DNA from: an uncultured Acidobacteriota bacterium
Lineage (GTDB): Bacteria; Acidobacteriota; UBA6911
Assembly (NCBI GenBank): GCA_963843575.1
Contig: CAWJKZ010000012.1
Coordinates: forward strand, 1-64,000
Reading direction: 5' to 3'
DNA length: 64,000 bases
Shown: positions 29,653 through 47,198 of the stretch, piece by piece
Layout: the number at the start of each line of letters is the position of its first letter
How positions within the stretch are numbered: position 1 is the stretch's first letter
Translations under genes and position numbers: made by a program
The notes under the pieces: model-generated
Seen by the model: only the letters and a program-made list of their open reading frames with translations
Databases searched by the model: none
What the model was told of the DNA's origin: nothing

Positions 29653-31623
29653 CTATTCCACTTCGAACTCGGCGTGACGAACCGCAGAGACGTTTCCCGC
29701 CGAATCGGACGCTTTGAGAACGACGGCATAGCCTCCCGGCGGCAGCGAGTCGAGCGGCACTTTCAAGCCGACCGGGATTACCGGATTGCCGGGCAGAACC
29801 CTGTTGGTCATGTCCAGGCGTCCGGAATCGATCTTGACATCTCCGCTCTGGCGATTGAGCACAACCAGCTGGATCAGGACCTTGGGCGGATCGGGACCGC
29901 GCAGCAGCGGTTCGTAGATCTCGACATACAGCATGGCCGGATCCGTCTTCCTGTAACGGTTGTTGCCTGAGGGTATGAACTGCAGTCCCCGGCTCACGAA
30001 GGGCGTGTGCTCACCCGCCAGCACAGCCCCGGACGACTGTGCCGCGGCCACGTCGCGCGACTCCTTCGACAGCGCGATGGCGCTGAGCGCAAAATGTTCC
30101 CCATCCCAGGGTTCGATGGTCAGCGGTGCCTCCAACTTCCCGAACTTGTCGCGATCCGAGCTGAAGACCATCTTCAGCGTGTAATTGCCTGCGGCTGCAA
30201 CGAGGTCGTTTTCGTAGCGGTACGGTCGTTGCTTGAACTGCTCCACTTCGTTCTTGCCCTGGAAGTCGAATTCCACCGTGTCGCTGAAGCGCGCTCCCAC
30301 CTCTCCCGCAGGGGAGGCTGCAATACCGAGCACATTCAAGCTGGCATGGAATCTGCCGTTCTGCTTCACGAAATTGAAGGCCGCCGCTGGGATCTCAGCG
30401 GTGATGTGGACCCGAGCCCGGTCCGGAGCCGTGTAGAAGAAGGGGGATTGCATCTGGCCGCCTATGCTGCCGGCCTGAGATCCGGCGGCGCGGGCCTCGA
30501 GTTCCCTGCCGGCCGGCGTTCCCGCAAGAGGGTCGCTGAGGTCGATGTTGCAGTATTCGGTTCGGGCCCGAACGACGGCGCCTCCGCGGTCCACCTTCAC
30601 TTTGACCTTGTGGCATCTTTCCCCGCCCGGTGGCGCGGGTGAATAGGCAATGAGGTAATGCTCCTCCTGGTCCTGCGCGATTTTCCGCAGTGCGTTGAGG
30701 GCGTCCTTCGAACTATCGATTGCCAGACCTCCCGTAGCCGCCGCGAGCGGACCCAGTTGATTCTCGACCAGCGCGCGATCGACGCGAACATCAACCAGGT
30801 AAATGGCGACGTTGGCCCGGTTGAAGGCATTGATGGCGCCGTTCATGTCTTCGGGCTGCACATAGTATGAGACAGCGGGAGCAGGCGGAGCCTCTATCGC
30901 GCTGCCAAGCACGCCCGCTCCCACGCTGCCGGGATCCGTGCGGGCACGGACGTCGTAGTTGACGGTCGGGGCGAGCACGACGATCGCCTTGCGCCCTGGC
31001 GTCGAGCCCAGGGACTTGGCCACCTCGACCAACGCTTGCAGCTGACTGCGAACATCGTATGCGACGGATGCTGCGGTCCGTGTCGGGTCGGCGTAGACGG
31101 ACGATGTCACCCCGGACACCCCGGCCGCCGAATCGGACGACAATACTCCGGAAGCCTCCATGTTCTTCGCGGCCTGTGTCAGCCGCTCGGCGTCCGCCGT
31201 GAAATTCTGAATGACTTTGATGCCGCCGCTGCCGAGGTAGTTGAGGATCGCCATCTGACGATGCGGTGCCGAGTAGGCTTCAATAAACCTCGTGGCCGCT
31301 TCCCGCGCATACGGCTGATCCGCCACAGGGATCCTGCCGAACAAAAGGACAGTATGCATCGGGGCCGTGGTTGCAGCCGTCTCGCGGTGAACACTCTGAA
31401 TGGCCTGTTCCTTGTTGCCTTCCCAGAGGTGAAACTCCGTCGGGGCGAGGTCGCGGATGAAGTCTCCCTTCTTGTCGGTAACAATCGCATCGACCAGTAC
31501 CAGTCGAGTCTCCGATCCGACGGTGGTCGCGTCGCCCCGCACGGGCCTGGGCGCCTGTCCTGCATCCGCGAGAGTCGTCAAGCCGAGAGTTGCCAGGAGA
31601 AGCACTTCGCGACGATGACGCAT
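29653..31623 (-). CDS. VWFA-related acidobacterial domain protein
   Basis: Signal peptide; RLVLVDAIVTDKKG...DL...F, PGRKAIV, ANVAIYLVD, LAAATGG, YLIAYSP and KVKVKV; AGGAGG RBS before ATG 31623. Confidence 0.85.
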   Translation of the reverse strand: MRHRREVLLLATLGLTTLADAGQAPRPVRGDATTVGSETRLVLVDAIVTDKKGDFIRDLAPTEFHLWEGNKEQAIQSVHRETAATTAPMHTVLLFGRIPVADQPYAREAATRFIEAYSAPHRQMAILNYLGSGGIKVIQNFTADAERLTQAAKNMEASGVLSSDSAAGVSGVTSSVYADPTRTAASVAYDVRSQLQALVEVAKSLGSTPGRKAIVVLAPTVNYDVRARTDPGSVGAGVLGSAIEAPPAPAVSYYVQPEDMNGAINAFNRANVAIYLVDVRVDRALVENQLGPLAAATGGLAIDSSKDALNALRKIAQDQEEHYLIAYSPAPPGGERCHKVKVKVDRGGAVVRARTEYCNIDLSDPLAGTPAGRELEARAAGSQAGSIGGQMQSPFFYTAPDRARVHITAEIPAAAFNFVKQNGRFHASLNVLGIAASPAGEVGARFSDTVEFDFQGKNEVEQFKQRPYRYENDLVAAAGNYTLKMVFSSDRDKFGKLEAPLTIEPWDGEHFALSAIALSKESRDVAAAQSSGAVLAGEHTPFVSRGLQFIPSGNNRYRKTDPAMLYVEIYEPLLRGPDPPKVLIQLVVLNRQSGDVKIDSGRLDMTNRVLPGNPVIPVGLKVPLDSLPPGGYAVVLKASDSAGNVSAVRHAEFEVE

Positions 31624-31639
31624 TCTCACCTCCTGAAAC

Positions 31640-31799
31640 TAACTACTCGTGTTTTGAACTACGCTAACGTTTCCAGGACGCGGATCTGCGCGGATGCACG
31701 CGGATTGCTGCCTGGTGGCAGGCCGCGCCCGATCCGCGTGAATCCTCAAAATCCGCGAAGATCCGCGTTCATCCGCGTCCGAAAAAACGTCATAGTACT
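31640..31799 (+). repeat. Dispersed GCGGAT-periodic palindromic repeat, copy 4 (most complete)
   Basis: TACTCGTGTT...CAGGACGCGGATCTGCGCGGATGCACGCGGATT...GATCCGCGTGAATCC...ATCCGCGAAGATCCGCGTTCATCCGCGTCC...TAGTACT. Confidence 0.8.
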
Positions 31800-32001
31800 T
31801 ATGCGTTTGGCCACTGAGAACAGGCCGTTCAACTCCCCAGGATCGATGTCGGTGGAGCGGGATGAGGGCAGGTCGCTTGAGGTCGGGGGGCTGGATTTCG
31901 CACATGGCATTGCCGCTGATGCCGCAGGTAAACCACCGGGGCTGCGCGGCCCGAGCTGGCCGCACAGTCACCCTCCCGGCGAAACTGATGACCTCCCTGG
32001 G

Positions 32002-32847
32002 TCAGAATTTCAGGACGACTTCTTCGGGGATGCTCTTCCCTTTCGGGAGTCGCAGGGTGAACCCTTTGACTGTTGCCGGCCGGTCTTTCAGCGAAAAGAA
32101 GAGGAACCTGTCGCGGTTCATCGACGACGGGATCGGGTCGGTCGTGTGCGCCTTGTCGTTGAAGTCCTTCTCCACGAGCTGCTTCTCAAACTGCGACAGA
32201 TCGCCGCCGCCGCCGCCCGGGTTGAGGACGATGGACGGTCCTCCCCAACCGCGCCTCCCATAGCCGCGGTTCCGCGGATCCGACGGGTCGTAGCGGGGGT
32301 CATTGCGCGGGTCGCTCGGGTAGCGCGGGTCATTCCTGGGAAGCCTTGGGTCGTTTGGGTAGCGCGGGTCGATGCGCGGATCGTTGGCGACCGTGGGATC
32401 GTATCGGGGATCGTTGGGGTCGGTTCGCGGGTCGCGGGTTCCCGCCCCCGGTTGCACCGCCACGGGTCCCCCCTGCTTCTTGGCCTCCGCGCTGACCACC
32501 ATCCCCTCGAGCACGGCCCGCGCCACCGTGTCGGGACCTATCAAGGGCACTTCGCCCCCATCGGGCCCAAGCAGCTGCAGATCTCCCGGAAGCTCCACTT
32601 CCACTTTCCCCGCGTTAAAGACGGCGAGGCGCACGGCCACGATATCCGACGGACTGAGCTCCTTGTAGAAAAAGTCTTTCTGGTCCTTCCCATCCAGCAG
32701 CAGGTCGGCGGCATAGACTACACCCCCGACCGTGGTGCGCGCCTGAAACTGCTCGGCTTTTTTCGCCTTGACCAGCTTCACCTTGAAACCGGCGAATGCG
32801 CCCACTGAGAAAAGCAACATCGCTAAAATCACTGCACGGTTTCTCAT
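32002..32847 (-). CDS. Exported hypothetical protein with an internal DPR tandem-repeat tract
   Basis: GGAGG RBS and signal peptide MRNRAVILAMLLFSVGAFA; about 8 DPR units sit between two globular segments. Confidence 0.75.
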   Translation of the reverse strand: MRNRAVILAMLLFSVGAFAGFKVKLVKAKKAEQFQARTTVGGVVYAADLLLDGKDQKDFFYKELSPSDIVAVRLAVFNAGKVEVELPGDLQLLGPDGGEVPLIGPDTVARAVLEGMVVSAEAKKQGGPVAVQPGAGTRDPRTDPNDPRYDPTVANDPRIDPRYPNDPRLPRNDPRYPSDPRNDPRYDPSDPRNRGYGRRGWGGPSIVLNPGGGGGDLSQFEKQLVEKDFNDKAHTTDPIPSSMNRDRFLFFSLKDRPATVKGFTLRLPKGKSIPEEVVLKF

Positions 32848-33006
32848 CAGAACCTCCGCCGGGCTGCTGCGCATATTCTGAACCATTCGCAGATCCTTAT
32901 CTATCACAAACGCGGGCGGGCACATCCCTGCAACCAGGCCGCTTGTGCAAGGTGTTCTGCCTTGAAGTTTGTCCCCCGAACGGTTCTAATCGGCGCGGAG
33001 GCGCAT

Positions 33007-34556
33007 ATGCACTGGATGGGATTGGATGTCGGCACGACCGGCTCGCGGGCGGTCATCGTGGACGAAGCGGGGAGCGTCGTCGCGGCTGCTTCCGCCGACC
33101 ACGCACCCATGGCTCAGCCTCAACCGACATGGGCGGAGCAGGACCCGGAGGACTGGTGGCGCGCGGCCCAGGAGGCGATCCGGGCGGCCCTGACCGAGGC
33201 CGGCCTCTCCGGCAGCGACATCGCCGGACTCGGCATGTCGGGCCAGATGCACGGCGCGGTGCTGCTCGACGGGCAGCACGAGGTCATCCGGCCGGCGATC
33301 ATCTGGTGTGACCAGCGCAGCCAGGAGCAGGCGGACTGGTTTACGGAAAGAATCGGGGCCGAGAGGCTGAAGGAGATCACCTGCAATCCTGCCCTCACCG
33401 GATTCACCGTTCCGAAACTCCTCTGGGTGAGGGACCACGAGCCGGCGAACTTCGAACGGCTCCGCATGCTGCTGCTCCCGAAAGACTACGTCCGGTTCCG
33501 CCTGACGGGCGATTTCGCCACCGAAGTGTCGGACGCCGCGGGCACCCTGCTGCTCGACGTGCCCGGGCGACGGTGGTCGCAGGAAATCCTGTCGGCGCTG
33601 GACCTGACGACCGGCCAGCTCCCGTCGGTGGCGGAATCCCCCGGGACCACGACCCGCATCAGCATGCAGGCGGCCGCGTCGACGGGACTCCGCGCCGGAA
33701 CTCCGGTCGCGGGTGGCGGAGGGGATCAGGCGGCGGGCGGGGTGGGCAACGGCGTCGTCGAGCCCGGGATCGTCAGCTCGACGATCGGCACGAGCGGCGT
33801 CGTGTTCGCCTACACGGACGCACCACACCTCGACCCTCAGGGACGGGTCCACACATTCTGCCACGCCGTTCCGGGGCGCTGGCACGTCATGGGCGTCACC
33901 CAGGGTGCCGGCCTTTCCCTCCGCTGGTTCCGCGACAATCTCGCCACGCGGGAGGCGGAGGAGGCCAGGGCGGCCGGCAAGGACGTCTACGACGCCCTGG
34001 TGCGCGAGGCTGCCATGGCCCCGCCCGGGTGCGAGGGACTGGTGTACTTGCCCTACCTCATGGGCGAACGAACGCCCCACCTGGACCCGTTCGCCCGCGG
34101 CGTGTTCTTCGGCCTGACGGCCCGACACACGCGCGCCCACATGATCCGCGCGATCCTGGAAGGCGTGGCTTACTCGCTGCGCGACTCCCTGGAGATCTTC
34201 GGCGCGATGGGAGTCCCCGTGCGGCAGGTGCGCGCCTCCGGTGGCGGAGGCCGCAGCCTCCTGTGGCGGCAGATCCAGGCCGACGTCTTCAATCGCGAGA
34301 TGGTCACCACCAACTCGACCGAGGGCTCCGCCTACGGCGCGGCGCTGATCGCGGCGACCGGCACCGGCGGGTTTGCGTCGGTCGAGGAAGCCTGCCGGGC
34401 ATGCATCCGGGTCACGGAGCACTGCGAGCCCGCTCCCGCGGCGGCCGCGTCTACGACGAGTACTATCGCGTCTACCGCGACCTGTATCCACGGCTCAAGG
34501 AGAGCTACAGGGCGGTGGCGGATATCGGGCGGGGTCGGGCCGAGGCGTCCGAATAA
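33007..34556 (+). CDS. xylB: Xylulokinase (FGGY family); frameshift near 34440
   Basis: GLDVGTTG, EQDPEDWW, SGQMHG, WCDQRS, LLPKDY, GGGDQAAG, PYLMGERTPH and GGGGRSLLWRQIQAD. Confidence 0.9.
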
Positions 34557-34606
34557 AACGCACCCGCCGCGGGTAGAATCTCAGGCAAAGGTGGAGGGTC
34601 CCATGC

Positions 34607-34828
34607 ATGGGTTTCGGAAGGCAGGAGGAGCCCGAGAGCGTCCGCATTCTCGGCAACGAGCTCGAGTGCGAAATCTGCCACCACAAGAGATTCTGGCAGA
34701 GGAAGGCTCAACTGAACACGGCGGTAGCCACCTTTTTCAACTTCGACTGGGCCAACCGGAGCGCCAGTTGCATCATATGCGAGCGCTGCGGCCACATTTA
34801 CTGGTTCCTCCCACCGAAAGAGGAGTGA
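34607..34828 (+). CDS. Small zinc-ribbon protein
   Basis: CEICHH...CERCGH pairs around LNTAVATFFNFDWAN; GGAGG RBS. Confidence 0.75.
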   Translation: MGFGRQEEPESVRILGNELECEICHHKRFWQRKAQLNTAVATFFNFDWANRSASCIICERCGHIYWFLPPKEE

Positions 34829-34841
34829 CCGGGAGTTTCGC

Positions 34842-35589
34842 TCACAACCGCGCCGTCCAGCTGACGATCTGATAGAAGAGGCGCGCGTACCAGCTTCCGA
34901 CTTCGATAGGGTTGGCGCCGTCGCCGCAGGCCGACACGCGCTCGTCCCCCCAATCGACGAGCCCTCCCACCCAATGGGGGGCGACGTCGCTGGCGAAGGC
35001 GGTGACGCGTCCCCGACCGTGTTCGCCGACCACCAGGAGCGGCGCCCTGATCCCCGGGAGCGAACTCGTACCCTTCGGCTCCGCGGGAGACGCGGAACTG
35101 CCGGGCCGAGAGGACCTCGACGGCGCCCGACTTCGCGGCGAGCCGGTTGTACCCGCCAATCCCCGGGCAGACCGCATCGAACGGCAGGCCGGCCACGGTG
35201 GGGTGCGGCGCCCGCAACTCGACCAGGCAGGGCTGCGGGCAGTTCACGCGGTCGTCGGCAGGTTCGAGCGCGACGGGGAGCACGTCGCGCAGGACGGTCC
35301 GACCGTAGTCCCCTCCCGCGCCCGTGAAGGACTCCCACCCGCCTATCATCAGGAGCCCCAGACCCGAGTCGATCCGCGCGGCCAAGTCCTCCAGTTGCCC
35401 GCCGGTAAACATCCTGGCCGGATAGTCGCTCAAGACCACGGCGCCGTACCCTGCGCGCTCCAGCGACGGGAACGGCTGATCGGAGGCAACATAGTCGAAC
35501 GTGACCCTGAAGTGCTGCATCACCCCCGCCAGGTAGCTCGCCGCTTCCCGCAGTGCGGTGTCGCCCACATAGAGTATTTGTTTTCTCAT
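34842..35589 (-). CDS. Class I glutamine amidotransferase-like (DUF1355-type) protein; frameshift near 35050
   Basis: ILYVGD, VVLSDYPA, GLLMIGGWESFTG, VLPV and GRGRVTAFASDVAPHW. Confidence 0.75.
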
Positions 35590-35634
35590 GGGGGCAGTAT
35601 ATCCGGGTGTGCCGCCCGCGCAAATAAATCGGGT

Positions 35635-35706
35635 GCCGAGCCCGTACGCCGACGCACGCCGAGGAAGCGCCGACCGGACATGCGCGTCGGCGCAAGTCGG
35701 CGTACG
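35635..35706. repeat. GCCGAC-unit periodic palindrome upstream of pfp
   Basis: CGTACGCCGAC (35643-35653) and GTCGGCGTACG (35696-35706) form a perfect IR, with nested GCGCCGAC/GTCGGCGC; four GCCGA units on the left arm. Confidence 0.55.
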
Positions 35707-35800
35707 CGCCCGGACTGCACATTGCAGGGCGTGGGCGGGATTTGCTAGACTGCGCGGGAAATACGTCAGTTTCGAACCAGTTCGTGCGGGAGAAATCCAA

Positions 35801-37028
35801 ATGCTCAAAGGTAATGCCATCATTGGACAGTCAGGTGGGCCGACGTCGGTGATCAACGCCAGCCTCGCCGGAGTCGTCGAGGCGGCCCAGGGGTTCGCGG
35901 GCATCGGCAGCATCCTCGGGATGCGCTGGGGCATCGAGGGCTTCATGGCCGAGAACGTCGTCGACCTCTCCGGGCTTGTCGCCCGAATTCATCGCCACCC
36001 TGAAGAAGACGCCCTCGAGCGCCCTGGGCAGCAGCCGCCACAAGCTGAAAGCGCCCGACCTCCCGGTCGTGTTCGAGGTTCTCGAAGAAGTACGACATCC
36101 GCTACGTGTTCCTGATCGGCGGCAACGACACGATGGACACGATCCACCGGGTCGAGGAATACGCCCGGCAGCAACGGCTACGAGTTGATCGGCATCGGCG
36201 TGCCGAAGACGGTCGACAACGATCTCTTCGGCACCGACCACACGCCGGGGTTCCCCAGCGCCGCCCGCTATGTCGCGATCTCGGTGCAGCAGGCCGGCAT
36301 CCTGGCGCGCGACATGCAGAAGGTGGATCAGTTCGTCATCTTTCAGTCGGTGGGCCGCTCCGCGGGCTGGCTCGCGCCTCGTCGGCGCTCGCCAAGAAGG
36401 CGCCCGAGGAGCCGCCGCACATTCTCTGCCTGCCGGAGCACCCGTTCGACCGCGACCAGTTCCTGGCCCAGCGTGAAGTCCTGCCACGAGAAGTACGGCT
36501 GGGTCAGCATCGTCTGCGGCGAAGGGGTGAGCTATCCCGACGGCACCCCCGTTTCGGCCTCGCGCGTGAAAGACAAGTTCAGCAACGTCGAGTTCGGCGC
36601 CATGGGCGGCACGAGCGCCGCAATGGCGCTGCACCGCATGATCTCCGACGAGTTCGGGTTCCGCGGCGAGTTCCAGGTCACCGAATCGCTGCCCATGTGC
36701 GCGGCCGACCGCGCCTCAGCCATCGACGTCGAAGAGGCGGCCCTGTGCGGCCGGAAGGCCGTCGAACTCGCCGCCGAGGGAGTCACGGGCCTCATGGTCA
36801 CCCTTGTCCGGCAGCCGGGCCCGGGATACCGCTGCACCACCGGCACGGCCGACCTCTCGGAGGTGGCCGTCAAAGCCAAGCCGATGCCGGCCGAATACCT
36901 CACCGAGGACGGAACCTTCGTCACCCAGGCCTTCCTCGATTACGTCAGGCCGTCTGGTCGGGCCCTTGCCCGAATATGCCAACCTGCCCTTTATAAAATT
37001 CAATCCTGTCCGGAGCGCATCCAAATGA
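35801..37028 (+). CDS. pfp: Phosphofructokinase, probably PPi-dependent; several frameshifts
   Basis: GQSGGPTSVINAS, ALGSSR, IGGNDTMD (Asp at the PPi-specificity position), PKTVDNDL (Lys), GRSAGWL; stop overlaps the next start (ATGA). Confidence 0.85.
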
Positions 37029-38041
37029 ACCAACAGCCAAAGTACTCGCAGTTCGCACTCGTTCGGGAGATGCTGGAGACTCCCGGTATTATCCGCAACT
37101 TCAAGACTGCGGGGGGCCGAAGAGACCGCCCGCGCCATCAAGGAAACCGGCAGACTGTTCTTCACGGGCGAAGGCTCGAGCCGCATCTTCCCCGCCAAGA
37201 ACGCCATGACCCAGGCGCTGCGGACCGGCCTCGACCTGCACCTCGCCACCGAGGGCGCCCGCCAGGCGCACGAATACCAACTCGACAAGTTCGTCGTCTT
37301 CGGCGCGTCCAACAGCGGCCAGACCAAGGAAGTCATCTCGCTGTTCGACAAGCTCGGCAAGGCGGGCCACGGAAAGCTTTTCGGGCTCACCGCCAACCAG
37401 AACACCAAGCTGGAGTCGCTGGCCAACAAGACCTTCATCCTGAGCTGCGGCAAGGAAGACGCCGTCGCCGCCACCAAGAGCGTGACCGAACAGGCGCTCT
37501 TCTACGAGTCGCTGCTCGCCCTCGTGCAGGGGCGCAGTCTCGACGCCAAGCTCCCCATGTCTGGCCGACGCCTATGAAGGCGCCCTTACCACCGCCGTCG
37601 CTCCCGCGATAACCGACGCAATCGCGCGCGCAGGCACCATCTACTTTGCCGGACGCAACGACGGCGTGGCCGAGGAACTGACGCTCAAGACCAACGAGAT
37701 CACACGCAAGAAGAGCGACTACCTCGAAGGCACCTACGCCGTGCACGGTATCGAAGAGGTCATGAATCCCGACGACGTCGTGATCCTCATCAACCCCTTC
37801 CCTGCAGAGGTGGAGAAGATCAGGGAGACCCTCGTCAAGGGGGTCGGGTTGAAGGTATTTGCGGTGGCTTCCGGGGAGACCATCTTCCCCACCGTGAAAG
37901 TCCCGGACGCCGGGGAACTCTCCGCCCTACGTCTGCCTGGCGGCCGGCTGGAACCTCCTGATCGAGGTCGGAACGGCCCTTGGGATCAACCTCGACAAGC
38001 CGGTCCGGGCGCGGAAAGTCGGCAACGAGTTTCTTGGCTAA
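37025..38041 (+). CDS. Double SIS-domain protein (GlmS isomerase half / GlmD-like); frameshifted
   Basis: REMLETP, FFTGEGSSR, SNSGQTKE, EDAVAATKS, AEELTLKTNEI, EGTYAVHGIEE and LGINLDKPVRARKV; no glutaminase domain. Confidence 0.82.
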
Positions 38042-38048
38042 CAAACCC

Positions 38049-38132
38049 ACGAGCCTTCGAGATCTTCGAGCCTTCAAGGTAAACTGCAAGAACTTACCTC
38101 GAAGGCTCGAAAAATAAAGGGAATCTCGAAGG
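38049..38132. repeat. CTTCGAG-unit periodic palindrome between the SIS and GlmU-like genes
   Basis: TTCGAGCCTTCAAGGTAA (38065-38082) and TTACCTCGAAGGCTCGAA (38094-38111) match at 17/18; extra CTTCGAG/CTCGAAG units flank them. Confidence 0.6.
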
Positions 38133-38157
38133 ACCTTCTGATTTTTCCTGAGGTAAA

Positions 38158-39369
38158 GTGCGCGCGAGCGAGCTCACGGAACGTGGCGTCGTGATTCCTT
38201 GCGTCGACGCCGTTGAAATCGGGCCCGAAGTCGACCTGGGCCGGATCGCCGCCGGCGTCGTCATCCACGCCGGGTGCCGGCTGTCGGGCGCCGGGACCTC
38301 CATCGGCCCGGGGTGCGAGATCGGATCCGAGGCCCCCGCCACCGTCGAGAACTGCCAGCTCGGCCGGCGGGTCAAGCTGAAGGGGGGGTATTACTCGGGC
38401 TCGACCTTTCTCGACGACTCGACCTTCGGGAGCGGCGCGCACGTGCGCGCCGGCACGTTGCTGGAGGAAGGCGTCATCGCGGCGCACGCGGTCGGGATGA
38501 AGCAGACGGTCTTCCTGCCGTTTGTGGTGGCCGGAAGTCTCATCAACTTCTGCGACGCGCTCGTGGCCGGGGGCACCGGCAACAAGGACCACAGCGAGAT
38601 CGGCTCGTCGTACATCCACTTCAATTTCACCCCACACCAGGACAAGGCCACGGCTTCCCTCGTCGGCGACGTGCCGCGTGGGGTGATGCTCGGAGAACGC
38701 CCCATCTTCCTGGGCGGCCAGGGCGGACTTATCGGCCCCGTGCGCATCGAGTACGGAACGGTAATCCCCGCCGGCACGATCTGCCGCCACGACATCCTCG
38801 TCGGCAACCAGCTGTTTGCGCCCGGGGCCGCCGCGTTCCGGGAGCCGCAGAATTACCTGGGGGGTCTCTACCGCGGGATCGGGCGCATCGTCCGAAACAA
38901 CCGAATCTACATCGGCAACATCTGGGCGCTGCGCACGTGGTACTCCAGGGTCCGGGCGAGTCTCATGAATGGGGACCCCTTTTCGGCCGCCTGCTTGAAA
39001 GGCGCGCTCAACCGACTAGACGAGATCCTGGAAGAACGCGTGAAGCGCCTCCGGGAGCTGGCCGGCAAGATGCCGCGCTCACTGGAGCTCGCGCGTTCCC
39101 AAATGGGCGCCGACCTCGAGGCGGAGCCGTATGCGGGGCAGAAGAAGTTCATCGGCGCGTGGCCGCGGATCGAGGCGGGCCTCAGGGCCGCGCCGCCCGA
39201 GACCACCGGCGCCCAGCCGCGCGACATCTTCCTCGGCGAATGGGAGCGCATCGACAGGGGCGCGAGCTACCCGGAAGCCGTCAGGCGCATCAGCCCGCAG
39301 GCCCGCTCGGCAGCCACGACCTGGCTTCAGTCTATCGTCGATCTGTACAGCGGCGGCCACACAGCCTGA
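38158..39369 (+). CDS. GlmU-like left-handed beta-helix acetyltransferase lacking the N-terminal uridylyltransferase domain
   Basis: Starts at the GlmU linker/LbH region (LTERGVVIP...VEIGPEV); hexapeptide repeats, AHVRAGT, SLINFCD, IHFNF, FLGGQGGLIGPVRI; long helical C-terminal extension; adjacent to glmM. Confidence 0.75.
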   Translation: MRASELTERGVVIPCVDAVEIGPEVDLGRIAAGVVIHAGCRLSGAGTSIGPGCEIGSEAPATVENCQLGRRVKLKGGYYSGSTFLDDSTFGSGAHVRAGTLLEEGVIAAHAVGMKQTVFLPFVVAGSLINFCDALVAGGTGNKDHSEIGSSYIHFNFTPHQDKATASLVGDVPRGVMLGERPIFLGGQGGLIGPVRIEYGTVIPAGTICRHDILVGNQLFAPGAAAFREPQNYLGGLYRGIGRIVRNNRIYIGNIWALRTWYSRVRASLMNGDPFSAACLKGALNRLDEILEERVKRLRELAGKMPRSLELARSQMGADLEAEPYAGQKKFIGAWPRIEAGLRAAPPETTGAQPRDIFLGEWERIDRGASYPEAVRRISPQARSAATTWLQSIVDLYSGGHTA

Positions 39370-39418
39370 CGGCAGGCCCGAATGCCGGCGGAGACCGGGA
39401 AGGCGGCGAGGAGAGATC

Positions 39419-40789
39419 ATGGGGCGATTGTTCGGTACGGACGGTGTCCGGGGTGTGGCGAATGTCCCGCCCATGACGGCCGAGATGGTACTCGATATCG
39501 GCAGGGCTACGGCCTTCGTCTGCAAGAGACACGAAGGCCGACGCCACAACATCGTCATCGGCAAGGACACGCGCATTTCCGGATACATGCTCGAAAGCGC
39601 CCTGACCGCAGGCATCTGCTCCATGGGGGTGGACGTGCTGCTCGTCGGGCCCATGACGACCCCGGGCATCGCCTTCATCACACGGAGCATGCGCGCCGAC
39701 GCCGGGATGGTGATCTCGGCATCCCACAATCCCTACCAAGACAACGGCATCAAGATCTTCTCACGCGACGGCTACAAGCTGCCGGACTCCGTCGAAGACG
39801 AGATCGAAGCCCTGATCACCTCGGGACGGATCAAAGACATCCGCCCCACCGCGGGTGAGATCGGCAAGGCCAGGCGCATCGAAGACGCCCTGGGCCGCTA
39901 CATCGTCTTCTGCAAGGACGCCTTCCCCGAGAACCAGAGCCTCGAGGGGATGAACGTCGTCATCGACTGCGCCAATGGGGCCACGTACAAGGCCGCCCCC
40001 ATCATCTTTTCAGAACTCGGCGCGGACGTGCACGCGATCCACTGCGAACCGAACGGCATGAACATAAACGAAAATTGCGGCTCGCAGCACACCCGCAGTC
40101 TGTCGGATGCGGTACGCAGCCACGGCGCGCACGTCGGCCTCGCGTTTGACGGCGACGGGGACAGGCTGATCGCCATCGACGAGAAGGGCCAGGAAATCAC
40201 GGGCGATCACGTCCTGGCGATCTGCAGCAAGCGGTACAAGGAAAACGGACGCCTGCGGAACAACCTGGTGGTGACGACCGTCATGAGCAACTTCGGGTTT
40301 CTGGCGTTCCTCAGGGAGATGGGGATCGGGCACGCCGCCTGCAAGGTTGGGGACCGGTACGTGCTCGAGATGATGGTGGACAAGGGCGCGGTCATCGGCG
40401 GTGAACCGTCCGGACACATGATCTTCCTCGACCACCACACGACCGGCGACGGGGTCATCTCGGCGCTGCAGCTGCTCTCGGCCCTCCAGGCCTCGGGCAA
40501 ACCGCTATCGGAGCTCGCGGACATCATGCGGCTGTCGCCGCAGAAGACGATCAACGTCGAGGTAAGCCGCAAGCCGCCGTTGGAGGAACTGCCGGAACTG
40601 CAGAGCGCCATCCGGCAGGCGGAGTCGGAGTTGGACGGACGCGGCAGGGTGCTGATCCGCTACTCGGGCACCCAGTCGCTGTGCCGTGTCATGGTCGAAG
40701 GCCCGGACGACGAGGTCACGAACCGGCTCGCGGCCGAGCTCGCCGGAACCGTGCAGCGCCTCGCGGGCAGCATCGAGCCCGGCCAATAG
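39419..40789 (+). CDS. glmM: Phosphoglucosamine mutase
   Basis: LFGTDGVRG, GKDTRISG, ISASHNPYQDNGIK, DGDGDR, VGDRYV, GGEPSGH and RYSGT. Confidence 0.95.
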   Translation: MGRLFGTDGVRGVANVPPMTAEMVLDIGRATAFVCKRHEGRRHNIVIGKDTRISGYMLESALTAGICSMGVDVLLVGPMTTPGIAFITRSMRADAGMVISASHNPYQDNGIKIFSRDGYKLPDSVEDEIEALITSGRIKDIRPTAGEIGKARRIEDALGRYIVFCKDAFPENQSLEGMNVVIDCANGATYKAAPIIFSELGADVHAIHCEPNGMNINENCGSQHTRSLSDAVRSHGAHVGLAFDGDGDRLIAIDEKGQEITGDHVLAICSKRYKENGRLRNNLVVTTVMSNFGFLAFLREMGIGHAACKVGDRYVLEMMVDKGAVIGGEPSGHMIFLDHHTTGDGVISALQLLSALQASGKPLSELADIMRLSPQKTINVEVSRKPPLEELPELQSAIRQAESELDGRGRVLIRYSGTQSLCRVMVEGPDDEVTNRLAAELAGTVQRLAGSIEPGQ

Positions 40790-40801
40790 CACGGGCTCCG
40801 G

Positions 40802-41704
40802 TCAGTAGATCTCCTCCCCCTCCTCCCGCGTGTAAAACAGGTGCAGCGATTCGCCGTCGCTCCCGTCCTGGGTATCGAGCAGCCGGGCCTCGGCCTGCGC
40901 GCGGTGATCCAGCGCCTGTCGCTCCAGCGCCTTGAGCTTCGCGCCAATCCCGTGATCGTCGACCAGCCGCTTGACCCGCTGAAACAGCCCGCGGCCGCCG
41001 CACAGGTACTGGCCCTCCCACAGGATCTTGCAGGCTACCATCGACTCGAACGTGTCGAAGCGCAGCTGGATGCACACCCTGGCTATATCCTTGACGACAT
41101 AATCGATCTCCTCCCGGTAATCCGGGTGCACGAGCAGGAAGTGCTTCCGCTTGTGGATCGCGTTGTCCAGTACGCTCAGAGCGCCGCGGTCGACTTCATC
41201 GACCGCGACTACTATGATGTCGAGGTCGGAGCCGCGCACCATCTGACCGGTGCTCCTCTCCGGCCGGGGCACCGTGTGGGACATGTCATAGGCGATGTCA
41301 CCGGCAATGATGAAGCAGACCTGCTCCATCAGGCCCCCAGGCTCCGGCAGCGTCGCCGCCACCGACTCCATCGTCTCGCGCGCGAGATTCCGCTTGTGCC
41401 GGCTGATCTCCCGGATTTCTTCCCGCAGCGTGCGGGCCTTCTCTTCCACTTCGGGGAACTGCCGCTCAATCCCCAGGACCGTGTATGTAAGAAACTCCCT
41501 CCGGATGGAAGGGGACAGCCGTGCGAAGCCCGGAACCGCCCGGTCGAGGCGCAGGAAGCGGGTCCCGGCGCCCGCAGAGCGGATTTCCGGAGATTTCCGG
41601 CAGCATTGCCAAGCCTGCAACACATCGAGCCGGGTCCGCTCCACCAGCTGCGCACCCGTTTGCGGTCCGTACTGTTGAAGCGTTGAAACAATCGTGGCTT
41701 CCAT
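40802..41704 (-). CDS. Hypothetical protein: N-terminal HTH-like segment plus Pol-beta-type nucleotidyltransferase-like domain
   Basis: IIAGDIAYD...GSDLDIIVV...EEIDYVV resembles the hG[SD]...DhD...D nucleotidyltransferase signature; clean 300-aa ORF. Confidence 0.65.
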   Translation of the reverse strand: MEATIVSTLQQYGPQTGAQLVERTRLDVLQAWQCCRKSPEIRSAGAGTRFLRLDRAVPGFARLSPSIRREFLTYTVLGIERQFPEVEEKARTLREEIREISRHKRNLARETMESVAATLPEPGGLMEQVCFIIAGDIAYDMSHTVPRPERSTGQMVRGSDLDIIVVAVDEVDRGALSVLDNAIHKRKHFLLVHPDYREEIDYVVKDIARVCIQLRFDTFESMVACKILWEGQYLCGGRGLFQRVKRLVDDHGIGAKLKALERQALDHRAQAEARLLDTQDGSDGESLHLFYTREEGEEIY

Positions 41705-41726
41705 GGCTTTCCGTGCCCGAGTGTGA

Positions 41727-41806
41727 GTCCGAGCTTCAGCCCGGACGTTGCTTGCGGTCGCTATATGCTCAGATCAAAAGACGTCCGGGCTGAAGCCCGG
41801 ACCCAC
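41727..41806. repeat. REPIN-like element, copy A
   Basis: GTCCGAGCTTCAGCCCGGAC...GTCCGGGCTGAAGCCCGGACCCAC: two inverted palindromic arms; spacer shared with copy B. Confidence 0.8.
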
Positions 41807-41821
41807 GTGTTTTGCGTCTAA

Positions 41822-42061
41822 GGTTTCGCGCAAGAATAGGTTCACATTTAGGCGCGAGCGCCGGGCGGGCAGATGCAAGGCGCCGCGACGCAGGCGATGT
41901 GGTGACATCGTCGAGGAGCGGCAACGCCGCAGATGCCCGCCCGCCGCCGCGCCCCGGAGGGCTGACGGCTCCGTCAATAACAATCTCCTATCTTTAGTTG
42001 CCGCATGATCTGTTGGCGCGGGAGCCGTCAGCAAAATGTGAAATTATTCTTGCGCGAACCC
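41822..42061. mobile_element. MITE-like non-autonomous element (240 bp)
   Basis: 28-bp terminal inverted repeats (41822-41849 / 42034-42061, 25/28 match), flanked on both sides by TAA; internal perfect IR GCTGACGGCTCC/GGAGCCGTCAGC; no credible ORF. Confidence 0.78.
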
Positions 42062-42134
42062 TAAGAGCATATCACGGTTCGCGGGAGCCTTTTTCTGGCG
42101 ATCGGGCGGTTCTGTTGGTATCCTCAATGCCACT

Positions 42135-44401
42135 ATGAACCATGCACCCCCAAAGCGCGCCCCATGGCGCCCGGCGGGCTTCCGCACGCCGGTGGAGCGG
42201 CTCGTCGAAGCGGTGCTCACCCATTCTTCGGCGCCCAAGTCACCTCCGCCGCGGCTGCGTGAACTCGTGAAACGTGTGCTCGACTTCGATTCGGGGGCGA
42301 CGCGGGTGGTGATACTCGGTGGGGGGACGGGGTTGTCGACGGTCGTCGGCGGCAACTCCCAGATGCCGGACTGGCCGGAGCGCCCCTTCGTCGGCCTCAA
42401 ACAGGAGTTTCCCAGGCTGGACGTGGTCGTGTGCACGACCGACGACGGCGGATCGACGGGCCGCCTGCTCCAGTGCCTTCCGATGATCGGCATCGGCGAC
42501 CTGCGCAAGTCGTGCCTGTCCCTCATAAGGCCGGACAGGCTGCGCGAAACCTACGGCACCGCGGAACACGAGGCGCAGCCGATAGTCCGCGCGGTGCAGC
42601 GGATCTTCAACCACCGTTTCCCCGACAAGGGGAGGCACAAGCGCATTCTCAGGGACCCGCTTGCGCTGCTCCCCGTTGCCCTGCGCCGCAGCTGCCCCGC
42701 ACCGCTGGCCGATACGCTGCGTGCGCTCGCGGCACCGCTGGCCGACCCGGGATCACCGTTGTCCCTCGATCCGGGAGGCCATTGCCTGGGCAACCTGATC
42801 CTGACCTCCGCGGTTTTCCGGGCCGCGGGGGGCGGACCGACCGGGCGCCCGGTCTGGCCGCCGTCGAAGCCGGACTCGACGAGATCGCAGTCCGAATCGG
42901 AGCCCCGCGTCGGCTGCTGCACCCCGCCACCGCCACCCCGGGGCAGCTCAAGTTCCGTTATGCCAATGGAGTCGAGGTCTACGGCCAAAGCAAGTCGTCG
43001 TGGGCGAACCGGCGCTGTCCCGTCGAAAGGGTGACGGCCGAGTTCACCGCACCGCCGGCGGTCAGCACTGCGGTCCTGCGCGCCATCCGCGGTGCGGACC
43101 TCATCATCTACGCCCCTGGAAGCCTGTACACGAGCATCATCCCGATCCTGCAGATCCCCCAGATCGCGGCAGCCATCCGGGAAAACCGGGCCGCGCTGAA
43201 AATCCTCGGCGCGAATTCATGGATTCAGCAGGGGGAAACCGACATTTCGCTGCGGAACGAAGGGCGGGGATTCCTGGTTTCCGAGCTGATCGAGGCCTAC
43301 GACCGCAACGTGCCAGGCGGTGCCCGCGGGCTCTTCGGCGTCGTGCTGAGCGCGAACCTGGAGCAGATCCCCAGCAACATCCTGCGCAACTATGCGCTGG
43401 AGGGCAAGCGGCCCCATCCACCTGGACCGCACCCGGGTCGAGGAGATGGGATTCCAGCCGGTCGAGGCGAGCCTGCTGTCACCCGACCGCATGCAGATGG
43501 CTCTCGTGATCCACCACGACGCGCGGAAATTCGCCCTCGCCGTCCGGACGCTCCTCTGGGCGAGGACCTACATGCCATCCGCCCGGCCGGGCAGGCCTGA
43601 GCACGGACGGCGCAGCACTGCCACGGAAACCGCGGCAGCCCGGAGGGGGCATCCCCCCCTGTGCGCCCAACTGGCCGCGGTGTGCGAAACACTCGGAGGG
43701 AAGAGTATTCAAACCCCGGTCGCTCCGGCAGGTGCTGCTGAAACTGGCCTGGGAAAACCGCGATATCCGGCCCGCGCACCTTTCGGGTTTCCGTGGCGCG
43801 CGGGTCGTTCCTGCGGCGGTATGGAACCGTGAAACGGCATGGGACAACGTCCTGGGCTACTTCGATCCGGCGGACCGCTTTCTCAAGGTTCACGAATGCC
43901 TGCTCGACAACCCAGCCAAGCTGCGCGAAGATCTGCTGGTCGCGCTCGGGGAGTCCTTGCTCGGCAGGTACATCGAAAGCCGTCGCTGGGCCGACGATCA
44001 GGCGTTGCGCAGTTGCGGCGGCCGCTGTTACGAAATCGGGTTGAGGCCTCCCGCCAAGCGGGAGTGTTTCCTGGACGATGCGCGGCTGCGCACGTACCTG
44101 GGGCTTGCGCGCATGAGGCCCGATCCGACCAGACGACAGGGTTTACCGCATCGTGCTCAACGGAAGCGAGAGGTTCCTCCCTTCGGGCATCCTGTTCGGC
44201 CTGATGTTTGCCTGGTACCTGGACAGTGCCTACGGGTCGAAGATGGAATATGAGATGTCGCTCCTGCGCTTTCCGGCCGAGACGCTGATCCCGCACCAGG
44301 TTCAGGAACGCGCACGCAAACAGGCCCTGGTGACCTTTTTCCGCGAGGTGGTTTTCGGACACCCGGAAGAGGAGCCAAGACAGACGAGGATGAATCCATG
44401 A
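42135..44401 (+). CDS. Long YvcK/GlmR (CofD-like, gluconeogenesis factor) family protein with C-terminal extension; several frameshifts
   Basis: VVILGGGTGLS, TTDDGGSTG, GDLRK, HCLGNLIL, ADLIIYAPGSLYTSIIP and HHDARK; about 250 extra aa at the C-terminus. Confidence 0.82.
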
Positions 44402-45320
44402 GAATGATGCCGGTGGCCGCCATTCTGCTGTGCGCCTCCCTGATTGCCGGCTGCGGCCGCAACGCCGGGCAGAAGACGATCGGGGTCTCGCTCCTTACCA
44501 AGGAGCACGTGTTTTACCGGGACATGGAGAAAGCGCTGCGCGACACGGCCGCGAAGCACAACTTCAACCTCATCGTGAACTCCGGCGACTGGGACCTGGC
44601 CAAGCACCAGGCCCAGATCGAAAACTACATCGTGCAGAAGGTCGACGCCATCATCGTGTGCCCTTGCGATTCCAGGGGGATAGGCCCTGCGATACAGAAG
44701 GCGAACTGCCGCCGGCATCCCCGTGTTCACGGCGGACATCCGCGCTGAAGGGGGCGAGATCGTCAGCCAGATCGCGTCCGACAATCTGGCGGGGGGGCGG
44801 CAGGCCGCCGAATACCTGGCCCGGCTGCTCAACGGGAAGGGCGAGGTCGCCATCATCGACCAGCCGATCACGCAGTCGGTCATCGATCGTGTGCGCGGTT
44901 TCATGGAGGTCATGGCCAGGTACCCCGAGATCCGCGTCGTGGCGCGGCCGAGCGGCGAGGGCGTGCGCGACAAATCCATGAAGGCCGCAGAAGATCTGCT
45001 GCAGGGATTTCCCGCGGTTGGCCGGGATCTTCGGCATCAACGACGACAGCGCCCTCGGCGCCCTCGCGGCCGTGGAGGCGGCCGGCCGCAAGGGCATCGT
45101 CATCGTCGGTTTCGACGCGATCCCGGAGGCACGGCAGGCCATCCTGCGCGGGAGCGCCCTGAAGGCGGACGTGGTCCAATACCCGCTCGAGATCGGGCGC
45201 ATCACCATCGAAACCATCGCGCAACACCTCTCCGGGCAGCCCGTTCCCAAGGACATCCCCGTCAAGGTCGGAATCGTGGACGCCTCCAATGCCCGGGAAG
45301 GAGTTCAGACCAACCCATGA
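44398..45320 (+). CDS. RbsB-like sugar-binding lipoprotein; frameshifted
   Basis: Lipobox IAGC; KVDAIIV, GIPVFTAD, IASDNLAGGRQAA, IFGINDDSALG, VGFDA and VQYP. Confidence 0.85.
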
Positions 45321-46157
45321 GCCCAACAATCGACATACGGGTCGCCCACAGCCCGGATTCCGACGACGCCTTCATGTTTTACGGTCTGGCGACCGGCAAG
45401 GTGGCCGTCCGGCGAGTTTCGGTTCACCCACATCCTCGAGGACATCGAGTCGCTCAACCGGAAGGCCCTCAAGGGCGAGTACGAGGTGACGGCGGTGTCC
45501 ATTCACGCCTACGCGTACGTGTCGCCAGCTGTACGCGCTACTGCCCGTCCGGGGCCAGCATGGGTGATCGATACGGCCCGCTCGTCGTGCGCGCCGACCC
45601 TGGAAGCTCGCCGAGCTGAAGGGCAAGACCATCGCCGTTCCCGGGAAGATGACGACCGCCTTTCTAGCGCTGAAACTGCTTGAACCCGAGTTCGAGCCGC
45701 TGGTGATTCCCTTCGACCGAATCATGGCGGCCGTCGATCGACGGCGACCGCCGACGCCGGGCTGCTGATCCATGAGGGACAGCTGACTTACGGGCGAGGA
45801 GGGGCTCCACAAGGTCGTCGACCTCGGGCGAGTGGTGGTTCGAGAAGCACGGGCTGCCGCTGCCGCTGGGCGGCAACGCCATCCGGCGCGACCTCGGGTC
45901 CGGAGCGGATCGACGGTGTCCGCACTCCTGCGCGAGAGCATCCGGTACGGACTCGACCACCGGGAGGCGGCCCTCGAGCACTCGCTCCGGTTCGCGCGCG
46001 GCCTCGAGCCAGCCCAGGCCGACCGGTTCGTTTCGATGTACGTCAACGATCGGACCCTGGACTACGGCCCCGAGGGCCGCGAGCGCGCGCGTACTGCTCG
46101 ATCAGGCGTGGGAACATCGTCTGATCCGTCTCCGGTCAGCCGGATTTCACGGACTGA
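45317..46157 (+). CDS. mqnD: MqnA/MqnD/SBP family protein (1,4-dihydroxy-6-naphthoate synthase-like); heavily frameshifted
   Basis: AHSPDSDDAFMFY, DIESLN, AVSIHAY, GASMGDRYGP, AVPGKMTTA, LIHEGQLT, LPLPLGGN and FVSMYVN. Confidence 0.82.
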
Positions 46158-46176
46158 GGCGGCCGGGAAATCCCAA

Positions 46177-46309
46177 GGGGTCCGGGCTTCAGCCCGGACG
46201 CTGTTTGCGGTCGCTATAACGTGCGCCCGTCGCCACATAGATCAGATCAAAAGACGTCCGGGCTGAAGCCCGGACCCACTTGGACAGCCTCTGAAGCTCG
46301 GACCCACTG
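46177..46309. repeat. REPIN-like element, copy B (plus a partial third arm)
   Basis: GTCCGGGCTTCAGCCCGGAC...TTGCGGTCGCTATA...TCAGATCAAAAGACGTCCGGGCTGAAGCCCGGACCCACT, then CTGAAGCTCGGACCCACT. Confidence 0.8.
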
Positions 46310-46381
46310 ACGGTTGACGGAGCGGTTGACCGATCTTAATTTCCATAGTCAGGTTTTACTCCGAAAGGAGGCCATGCAGCA

Positions 46382-46688
46382 GTGCCCATATACGAGTATC
46401 AGTGCTCTAATTGCGGTGAGGTTTTTGAAGCTTTCCAGAAGATTCACGACAACCCTTGTACGGAGTGCAAGTTCTGCCACGGACGGGTCGAGAAGCTGAT
46501 CAGCCACTCCAGCTTTCAGCTCAAAGGCGAGCGGCTGGTACCTTACGGATTACGCGCGCAAGTCCCAACCCTCTTCTTCCGGCAGCGTGGGGGAATCCAA
46601 ACCGGCGGACAAGAGCGACAAGGGAACCGAGTCGAAACCGGCGGCCGCGCCCCGCCAAAGGGAGCAAAACCGATTGAGGGGGATGTGA
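46382..46688 (+). CDS. FmdB family zinc-ribbon protein; frameshifted near 46527, 3' end approximate
   Basis: AAGGAGG RBS; MPIYEYQCSNCG...CKFCHG...KLIS...FQLKG, then SGWYLTDY in the shifted frame. Confidence 0.85.
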
Positions 46689-47198
46689 ACCCACCCAGTT
46701 CTCGGGGAACAGCGCAAGCTGGTCATCCACGCTGCAGACGAGGCGGAGCAGCACACCTCGAGCTATTACTGTTTTCCGCCCCACCGCTGGCAGATGCTTC
46801 GCTACGACCTGCTTACCAGGCAGGATAACGAGTGGGAACCCCTGCCCGAGCGTATTCTGGCCCGGGTTCAACACATCGAGGCGGTCCAACCGGCACGGCG
46901 CTGCAATTACGACTTCTACCGGATCCAGCTGAACGATCCGGGCATCCTGGGGGCGGCTGAACGGGAGAACATCGCCGCCGATCTCTACCCGTTTCTCGTT
47001 TACATCATCACCCACGAACTGGTGCATCTGGTGCGGCTGAGCAGCATCGTGGACGACCGCCGGCACGTCGAGGCGGCGCCCGAGTGCGAGGAGGCGCGCG
47101 TGCAACAAGTCGCGCGCCAGGTGCTTGCGCGCAGCGGACACCGCGGGTTCGATGCCGTGTTCGACAGGTTCTGCTCCCCGCTGTCCGCCGCCGATTGA
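46685..47198 (+). CDS. Hypothetical protein with HExxH zinc-metallopeptidase-like motif (start approximate)
   Basis: ORF 46794..47198 contains YIITHELVHLVR and a downstream CEEARV; the frame stays open upstream to about 46710. Confidence 0.6.

Follow-up and report, generated by a model that had tools for sequence, protein, structure and literature searches.

The DNA analysed here, referred to as the window, comprises the first 64,000 nucleotides of contig CAWJKZ010000012.1 (C12) of an uncultured Acidobacteriota bacterium, and the subject of this report is a row of amino-sugar genes between positions 35801 and 44401. The source assembly (GCA_963843575.1, here G000) amounts to 6.68 Mb in 27 contigs with a completeness of 88%, and the window corresponds to G000:C12:1-64000. 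Since open frames alone are misleading at a G+C content of 59-68%, the genes were identified by family scans either of their own frames or of the intact orthologues in a related genome (G011, locus L030). The row opens on the plus strand with pfp, encoding a pyrophosphate (PPi)-dependent phosphofructokinase (35801..37028), and continues on the same strand with the genes for a 337-residue protein of two SIS domains, of the NagB-II or GlmS-isomerase type (37025..38041), for a 403-residue left-handed beta-helix (LbH) protein (38158..39369) and for the phosphoglucosamine mutase GlmM (39419..40789). A 300-residue protein of an unnamed family, with a winged helix-turn-helix followed by a nucleotidyltransferase (NTase) domain, is encoded on the minus strand (40802..41704), and the row ends with the plus-strand gene of a long CofD/YvcK protein of about 730 residues (42135..44401). 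Divergent from pfp lies a GATase1_like gene (PF07090; 34842..35589, minus strand). The LbH, glmM and NTase genes are intact, and the other four contain frame breaks that are discussed below.

A preliminary description of this DNA had read the six genes from pfp to the YvcK gene as a possible non-canonical pathway to UDP-GlcNAc (the uridine diphosphate derivative of N-acetylglucosamine), built from half enzymes. All six genes were recovered at their proposed positions and the row as such is borne out; it had gone unstated that the NTase gene runs on the minus strand and converges with glmM. The idea that the row stands in for absent GlmS and GlmU is contradicted by the genome, which encodes both proteins at full length. 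Canonical glmS is found 43 kb downstream in C12 (G000:C12:84850-86697), free of stops and scoring 821 bits where the cut-off is 418, and canonical glmU is intact on another contig (C14:622395-623747; 550 bits against a cut-off of 367), with its catalytic histidine kept in the alignment. Canonical glmU is likewise present in a genome of the same genus (G001) and in two further relatives (G007 and G011). Because intact glmS and glmU are present, no activity is missing for the half enzymes to supply, and amino-sugar breakdown and the supply of cell-wall precursors meet in this row, which is not a new pathway. Its glmM is the housekeeping copy, since it is the only one in the genome to exceed the family cut-off (602.9 bits against 447.55 for TIGR01455, with all four PGM/PMM Pfam domains detected).

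The central element of the row is the LbH protein. It starts directly with the beta-helix (residues 1-235), lacks the N-terminal uridylyltransferase domain of GlmU and continues with a helical domain (residues 242-398). Of the 452 positions of the GlmU model TIGR01173 it matches just 241-430, with 41.4 bits against a cut-off of 366.85, and none of 20 family members reaches any Pfam cut-off in a search at E values up to 1. Comparison of the family with nine canonical GlmU sequences by hhalign nevertheless gives a probability of 98.8% and an E value of 6e-17. The AlphaFold2 model (predicted local distance difference test score, pLDDT, 92; predicted template modelling score, pTM, 0.93) was used for a Foldseek search of the PDB, in which the top 35 listed matches were all GlmU, followed by LpxD, LpxA and QdtC. 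The earlier view of a GlmU-like protein reduced to the beta-helix is thus supported by both methods, which identify a homologue of the GlmU acetyltransferase. The helical domain of about 160 residues found no PDB match by Foldseek.

Residue correspondences were taken from two agreeing alignments, an hhalign profile-profile comparison and a PDB profile search; the numbering and roles of the GlmU residues are presumed from the Escherichia coli enzyme, with His363 as the catalytic residue and Arg333 and Lys351 as phosphate binders. The most conserved block of the LbH protein (residues 95-200) aligns to the coils of the GlmU acetyltransferase active site. Arg333, Lys351 and Asn386 are kept as R97, K115 and N156, invariant in 52 sequences, and the family has invariant residues of its own in His110, His145 and His154. 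The LbH protein therefore resembles the C-terminal domain of GlmU (PDB 2oi6, 3d8v, 4fce) in its left-handed beta-helix, sequence homology, sugar-phosphate-binding residues and link to glmM, and differs from it by a 6-residue insert with an invariant His-Ser-Glu and by the 160-residue helical domain in place of a short C-terminal arm. A complex prediction for GlmM and LbH gave a score of 0.00, which is informative neither way.

The LbH family is large and widely spread. Among 8000 candidates scored, 7708 proteins matched at E<=0.001, the best 120 being 58-100% identical, and members occur in Acidobacteriota, Verrucomicrobiota/Kiritimatiellia, Lentisphaerota, Myxococcota, Desulfobacterota and Chloroflexota. 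The gene context was counted over 80 species-level loci centred on LbH; these and the other phyletic counts given here are descriptive and not statistical tests, related genomes not being independent. In 56 of the 80 loci, from several phyla, glmM lies within 10 kb of the LbH gene, and in 50 of these 56 it follows directly downstream on the same strand, with a gap of at most 400 nt in 48 cases and a median of 53 nt. With the count restricted to loci that extend 1500 nt or more to either side of the LbH gene, glmM is present in 48 of 66. Full-length glmS was found nearby in 11 of the 80 loci, the NTase gene in 8 and long YvcK in a single one; in no locus was LbH near pfp, the SIS gene or the GATase-like gene. 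Conservation of synteny thus holds for LbH-glmM across phyla and, for the order pfp-SIS-LbH-glmM, within the closest lineage (G001, G011 and the metagenome contigs L152-L154), and it fails for the association of LbH with the upstream genes elsewhere.

The distribution of GlmU among LbH carriers points to a partner role for the family. Fifty of the 80 carrier genomes, all from other phyla, had been chosen for their longer contigs before the result was known, and GlmU above the cut-off was found in none of them. A match to the N-terminal part of GlmU only is present in 13 of the 50 (255-309 bits, open frames of 251-397 codons), and 33 encode a UDPGP/NagU-type protein (PF01704), 18 of these with at least 395 bits. 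Within the Desulfobacterota class around G064, an even sample of 61 genomes contained LbH in 56 and N-terminal-only GlmU in 48 (236-284 bits, about 250-320 residues), and fused full-length GlmU was found in 0 of the 61, which makes split GlmU the apparent rule for the class. LbH is carried by 9 of 31 relatives of the window genome; canonical GlmU occurs in 4 of these 9 carriers compared with 18 of the 22 non-carriers, the 18 including an unpublished genome (G028). The five carriers without GlmU are 96-99% complete and their best GlmU matches reach 60-107 bits. No LbH family member was detected in 150 other genomes of a phylum-wide even sample of Acidobacteriota, which makes LbH in this phylum a local acquisition or a relic.

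The LbH family is accordingly, as judged from sequence comparison, widespread and free-standing, related to the GlmU acetyltransferase half and tied to glmM. Because full-length GlmU was not found in most carriers and an N-terminal-only GlmU or NagU-like enzyme occurs in many, the LbH protein is probably a monofunctional acetyltransferase of glucosamine-1-phosphate (GlcN-1-P). In genomes lacking the GlmU acetyltransferase half the family would supply it, and in the window genome it would provide a second copy of the function. The notion of half enzymes can thus be retained for the family as a whole, although not as a need of this particular genome. GlmU is regarded as essential and present throughout bacteria, and it serves as a drug target; the counts suggest that it may not be universal. 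In the Desulfobacterota class, much of the Planctomycetes-Verrucomicrobia-Chlamydiae (PVC) group and some Acidobacteriota, a separate protein whose active site is remodelled seems to take the place of the GlmU acetyltransferase half. Public names of family members include 'UDP-N-acetylglucosamine pyrophosphorylase', 'UDP-GlcNAc/UDP-GalNAc diphosphorylase' and 'bifunctional GlmU', and the proteins contain no nucleotidyltransferase domain. The family is therefore probably misnamed in the databases, and metabolic reconstructions of these groups would credit the wrong step.

This family-level result, which is built from comparative counts and touches the assumed universality of GlmU, is partly anticipated by a recent preprint. 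A section of it describes PVC species that have only the C-terminal acetyltransferase piece of GlmU, likely working with NagU, and other species that encode the GlmU halves separately, some of which also keep the full GlmU (bioRxiv 10.64898/2026.06.23.733835). The LbH-carrier counts show the same patterns as the truncated and split GlmU of that section. The likeness is one of text, and its proteins may or may not belong to the LbH family; the section in question contains no family definition, glmM linkage or active-site comparison and no Acidobacteriota or Desulfobacterota.

In the upstream part of the row, pfp and the SIS gene form a unit of their own. The G011 orthologue of pfp shares 73% identity with the window copy and reaches 412 bits with NF010675 (cut-off 273), and the frames of the window gene contain the motifs GGNDT and PKTVDND, which we take to be the signature of PPi-type phosphofructokinases. 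The stop codon of pfp overlaps the start of the SIS gene as ATGA (37025-37028), suggesting translational coupling. The SIS protein contains the SIS Pfam domain only and is devoid of an N-terminal glutaminase domain, and just the isomerase part of the GlmS model TIGR01135 is matched (positions 337-550 by the G011 orthologue, 288-416 by the window copy). Scores against the NagB-II, GlmS and GlmD models amount to 33-38 bits, far below the cut-offs (37.9 against 430 for NagB-II, 34.7 against 580 for GlmD). Its closest solved relatives are the NagB-II glucosamine-6-phosphate (GlcN-6-P) deaminases 8eol and 3hba (E 1.6e-7), with which it shares the motifs SxSG, VAATKS, LK..E, HG and DKP..K, invariant in 13 sequences; the conserved Glu, His and Lys and the C-terminal Lys are presumably catalytic as in GlmS. 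The protein thus resembles NagB-II of the Shewanella type, archaeal GlmD and the isomerase half of GlmS in having two SIS domains, phosphate-binding and catalytic motifs and no glutaminase, whereas it belongs to a tight 337-residue family of its own and is coupled to a PPi-dependent phosphofructokinase.

The surroundings of the SIS gene in other genomes speak for breakdown. All six relatives that have the gene carry pfp directly upstream of it, and in G007 the order is GATase-like, pfp, SIS and long YvcK, with LbH-glmM elsewhere in the genome. In a separate set of 80 metagenome loci centred on SIS, pfp is a neighbour in 34, the GATase-like gene next to pfp-SIS in 15 and LbH-glmM in 3. A ROK kinase is found in 11 and a PIG-L deacetylase in 13 of these loci; one or the other occurs in 18, of which 13 also have pfp. 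The combination of deacetylase, kinase, deaminase and phosphofructokinase amounts to a route of N-acetylglucosamine breakdown, and the archaeal chitin pathway that uses GlmD resembles such a set. Because its relatives sit with pfp, ROK kinases and PIG-L deacetylases, the SIS protein is, on this comparative ground, most likely a GlcN-6-P deaminase that favours the breakdown direction of a reversible reaction. The preliminary description was right about a GlmS-like SIS protein without glutaminase domain, and its biosynthetic role for this protein is not supported by the breakdown-like context. Elsewhere in the genome nagA was found, and nagB-like matches remain below the cut-off, one of them split over two frames, which speaks for neither direction of the SIS reaction.

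As a separate observation, a protein of about 740 residues with DUF4954 (hexapeptide-like) and DUF6819 domains is encoded directly upstream of SIS in 24 of the 80 metagenome loci (L210:4751-6976 and 23 more among L152-L231), together with pfp in one locus. The DUF4954 clusters are also next-nearest to the LbH family by Atlas feature score (0.88), which is a lead only; the hhalign probability for a relationship between LbH and the DUF4954 protein was 18%, and no relation was shown.

The remaining three genes had been named as possible sources of nitrogen or of uridylyl transfer. The GATase-like protein matches PF07090 with 58 bits against a cut-off of 27, and all ten sequences compared contain an invariant GGWES motif with a tryptophan at the expected place of the nucleophile. 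This tryptophan presumably occupies the site of the nucleophilic cysteine of class-I amidotransferases, after the central strand. Having Trp instead of Cys, the protein is a poor glutaminase candidate, and the proposal that it supplies nitrogen loses its ground.

The NTase protein is matched by no Pfam or NCBIfam model and belongs to an unnamed family of 302 residues with 2631 matches, several of which lie on contigs equal in size to those of LbH matches, hinting at shared contigs. The predicted structure (pLDDT 89) combines a winged helix (residues 1-82) with an NTase domain (about residues 95-293) of the Pol-beta type containing a GS...DLD motif. A nucleotidyltransferase fold, as previously assumed, is hence confirmed by structure prediction and search, and the best VIA-align matches are DrrA (Z 10.8), ANT(4') (9.9) and GlnE (8.8 and 8.0). 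The core fold and the GS...DLD motif are shared with these Pol-beta nucleotidyltransferases, and the N-terminal winged helix sets the protein apart from them. None of the listed Foldseek and VIA-align rows is a sugar-1-phosphate nucleotidyltransferase (GlmU-N, RmlA, UAP1), an absence from a list that does not exclude such a fold. Because the best fold matches are protein and antibiotic nucleotidyltransferases, the model suggests an enzyme that modifies proteins or small molecules, and the uridylyl-transfer role once considered for it is not supported.

The long YvcK protein was scanned through its G011 orthologue, which contains a CofD domain (PF01933, 152 bits against 30) and reaches 110.8 bits against a cut-off of 196 with the YvcK model TIGR01826. 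Long forms also occur in Kiritimatiellota and Thermodesulfobacteriota clusters. Like GlmR/YvcK of Bacillus, Listeria and Staphylococcus, the protein has a CofD/YvcK domain and its gene adjoins genes of the UDP-GlcNAc pathway. It differs from these proteins by its double length, by an insert and by a C-terminal extension of about 300 residues, for which an Atlas search returned only template modelling (TM) scores of 0.4-0.5 to peptidase-like models; judged by eye, the gene is not part of a row of the yvcJ-yvcK-whiA type. Titles in the literature present GlmR as a UDP-GlcNAc-binding partner of GlmS and, in Listeria, as an accessory uridyltransferase (PMC7525490, PMC10128056), in agreement with the background from which the preliminary description had started. 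According to a section of the preprint cited above, native GlmR cannot replace uridyltransferases in Staphylococcus aureus cells (10.64898/2026.06.23.733835).

Gene identities, homology, the presence of glmS and glmU, synteny and phyletic counts can be brought together in one explanation, which we hold to be somewhat better than an even bet: two independently conserved amino-sugar modules lie side by side and do not replace GlmS or GlmU. In it we infer all the enzyme activities, the direction in which the SIS protein works and what YvcK and the NTase do. The two modules would share a single metabolite, GlcN-6-P. The upstream one would consist of the GATase1_like gene followed by pfp-SIS, in which translational coupling would join a PPi-dependent phosphofructokinase to an enzyme of the NagB-II or GlmS-isomerase type; this enzyme would interconvert GlcN-6-P with fructose-6-phosphate (Fru-6-P) and ammonia, mostly in the breakdown direction. 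The downstream module would be LbH-glmM with the convergent NTase gene, placing the housekeeping mutase beside a putative monofunctional GlcN-1-P N-acetyltransferase that shares its descent with the C-terminal GlmU half. In most LbH lineages this protein would be the sole such half, partnered by an N-terminal-only GlmU or a NagU-like uridyltransferase. In the window genome the full-length GlmU coexists and could perform the uridylyl step, and for that reason LbH would here open a second route to GlcNAc-1-P. The long YvcK may be guessed to be a GlmR-like regulator and the NTase a modifying enzyme.

Several facts weigh against this explanation. The best 120 matches of the SIS family are 69-89% identical, Planctomycetota included, which by sequence comparison is unusually tight across phyla for an accessory breakdown enzyme. 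The kinase, the deacetylase and an obvious amino-sugar transporter, as seen at other SIS loci, were not found in the window, and the genome has other possible deaminases in two further GlmS-C-like SIS proteins and in the nagB-like matches. The relatedness of the genomes compared means that phyletic counts overstate the support. Full-text literature searches turned up no assay of any LbH family member, and the retention of LbH in G000 would lack an explanation if it merely duplicated GlmU. In the active site of the LbH family, finally, the catalytic His363 of GlmU is replaced by an invariant Ser127, Glu349 by Gly, Tyr366 by Asn130 and Asn377 by Glu147, so that the chemistry may differ or the protein may be no enzyme at all.

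The last point leads to an alternative that we regard as unlikely, namely that LbH is not a GlcN-1-P acetyltransferase and acts as a GlmM-associated regulator or pseudo-enzyme, or as an acyltransferase on another amino-sugar phosphate, for example GlcN-6-P in a eukaryote-type order of steps. The four altered active-site positions would fit this alternative, as would the helical domain without PDB match behind the beta-helix, the occurrence of LbH alongside full GlmU in G000, G001, G007 and G011 and the eukaryote-type UDPGP/NagU enzyme of many carriers. It is countered by the exact alignment of the most conserved block to the active-site coils of GlmU with both phosphate-binding residues kept, and by whole lineages without a C-terminal GlmU half, where no protein other than LbH can be recognised as a candidate for an essential step. 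A further counter-argument is that certain LbH N-acetyltransferases, among them the fold match QdtC, function without a catalytic base. A similarly small chance is given to the idea closest to the preliminary description, a complete second route from fructose phosphates to UDP-GlcNAc that is independent of GlmS and GlmU. Pfp would provide Fru-6-P, the SIS enzyme would aminate it with free ammonia, GlmM would isomerise and LbH acetylate the product, and the long YvcK or the NTase would add uridine monophosphate. The intact glmS and glmU of G000 argue against this route, as do the breakdown-like context of SIS elsewhere, the fold of the NTase, the failure of native GlmR to substitute for uridyltransferases in S. 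aureus cells as described in the preprint section, and the restriction of long YvcK orthologues to 12 of 58 LbH carriers. In its favour are the order pfp-SIS-LbH-glmM-(NTase)-YvcK kept in G001, G011, L152 and L154, the direct succession of SIS and long YvcK in G007 and, by its title, the report of GlmR as an accessory uridyltransferase in Listeria. The sister genus (g2) offers a further argument, since its four genomes, 96-99% complete, carry LbH and long YvcK in 4 of 4 and the NTase in 3 of 4, and none has a GlmU above the cut-off, an N-terminal-only GlmU or a UDPGP protein. The same combination is shown by G033, G036, G037 and G038, giving eight LbH carriers with long YvcK, most with the NTase, and no GlmU, N-terminal-only GlmU or UDPGP protein. 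An acidobacterial lineage in which LbH and long YvcK, perhaps with the NTase, form a UDP-GlcNAc route independent of both GlmU and NagU, YvcK or the NTase being the GlcNAc-1-P uridylyltransferase, is therefore conceivable, although we consider it improbable, marginally more so than the two alternatives above; the sister genus would then depend on this route alone. The uridylyl step could instead be performed in these eight carriers and in G000 by a 340-residue protein of NTP-transferase and short LbH parts (G000:C10:117060-118073, L009; also G002, G012, G015 and G024, L122-L125). It occurs independently of GlmU and scores 191-285 bits against a mycobacterial mannose-1-phosphate guanylyltransferase model and 157-180 bits against Arch_glmU, all below the cut-offs; for the g2 genomes and G000 the respective values are 275-285 and 174-180 bits.

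How far the upstream module and the YvcK gene are functional depends on the nature of the frame breaks. A frameshift-aware dynamic programme that aligned the intact G011 proteins to the window DNA placed 14 breaks, six in pfp (near 35972, 36084, 36172, 36374, 36469 and 36953), three in the SIS gene (near 37112, 37554 and 37922-37927), four in the YvcK gene (near 42828, 43409, 43707 and 44131) and one in the GATase-like gene (near 35049); none was found in the LbH, glmM and NTase genes. A composition-only frame model with six states, based on G+C by codon position, switches at the same places. The breaks are very probably patchy assembly errors. Real breaks, with pfp, SIS, long YvcK and GATase-like genes as decaying pseudogenes beside working LbH, glmM and NTase genes, would explain why all 14 fall in four genes and leave free the 3.5 kb over the other three, which is odd for random error; a comparison with data from other studies was moreover possible at one of the 14 sites only. 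We judge such decay quite improbable, because the alignment to G011 met no in-frame stops in the broken genes, their amino-acid identity to G011 (61-73%) is like that of the intact neighbours, the alignment models 12 of the 14 as a single surplus base, and the pfp and SIS frames are open in the same-genus genome G001. The one site that could be compared is covered by short, near-identical contigs of two other studies, which have one base fewer at 37922, beside the break placed at 37927, and otherwise match the window with 0 and 1 mismatches over about 257 nt. Patches of similar density also lie in unrelated stretches of the assembly: same-strand frame switches have a genome median of 3 per 10 kb and a 90th percentile of 9, and C12 has 12 at 0-10 kb, 10-12 at 30-50 kb, 15 at 60-70 kb and 1-3 in between. 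Five public sequencing runs containing related sequence share 5-9% of sampled words with the window, and four of them were compared along it. The assembly seems to be unevenly polished, and with such patchy polishing many genes elsewhere in it may look broken. Outside the window, at G000:C12:207515-208205, a nagB-like gene gives two separate matches, one of 142 bits over model positions 80-235 and one of 39 bits over 1-78, and is probably split by another frame break.

An Rfam scan of positions 31000-47000 returned no RNA family. Two further open reading frames lie beyond the GATase-like gene. One, on the plus strand from 32962 to about 34540, is judged by eye to be sugar-kinase-like; it has a frame change at about 34430-34450 near its C-terminal end and is a single frame in G001. 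The other, on the minus strand at 32002-32925, encodes a lipoprotein-like product with runs of DPRYDP-type repeats and is also found beside the GATase-like gene in G011 (L030:10903-11862, 55% identity).

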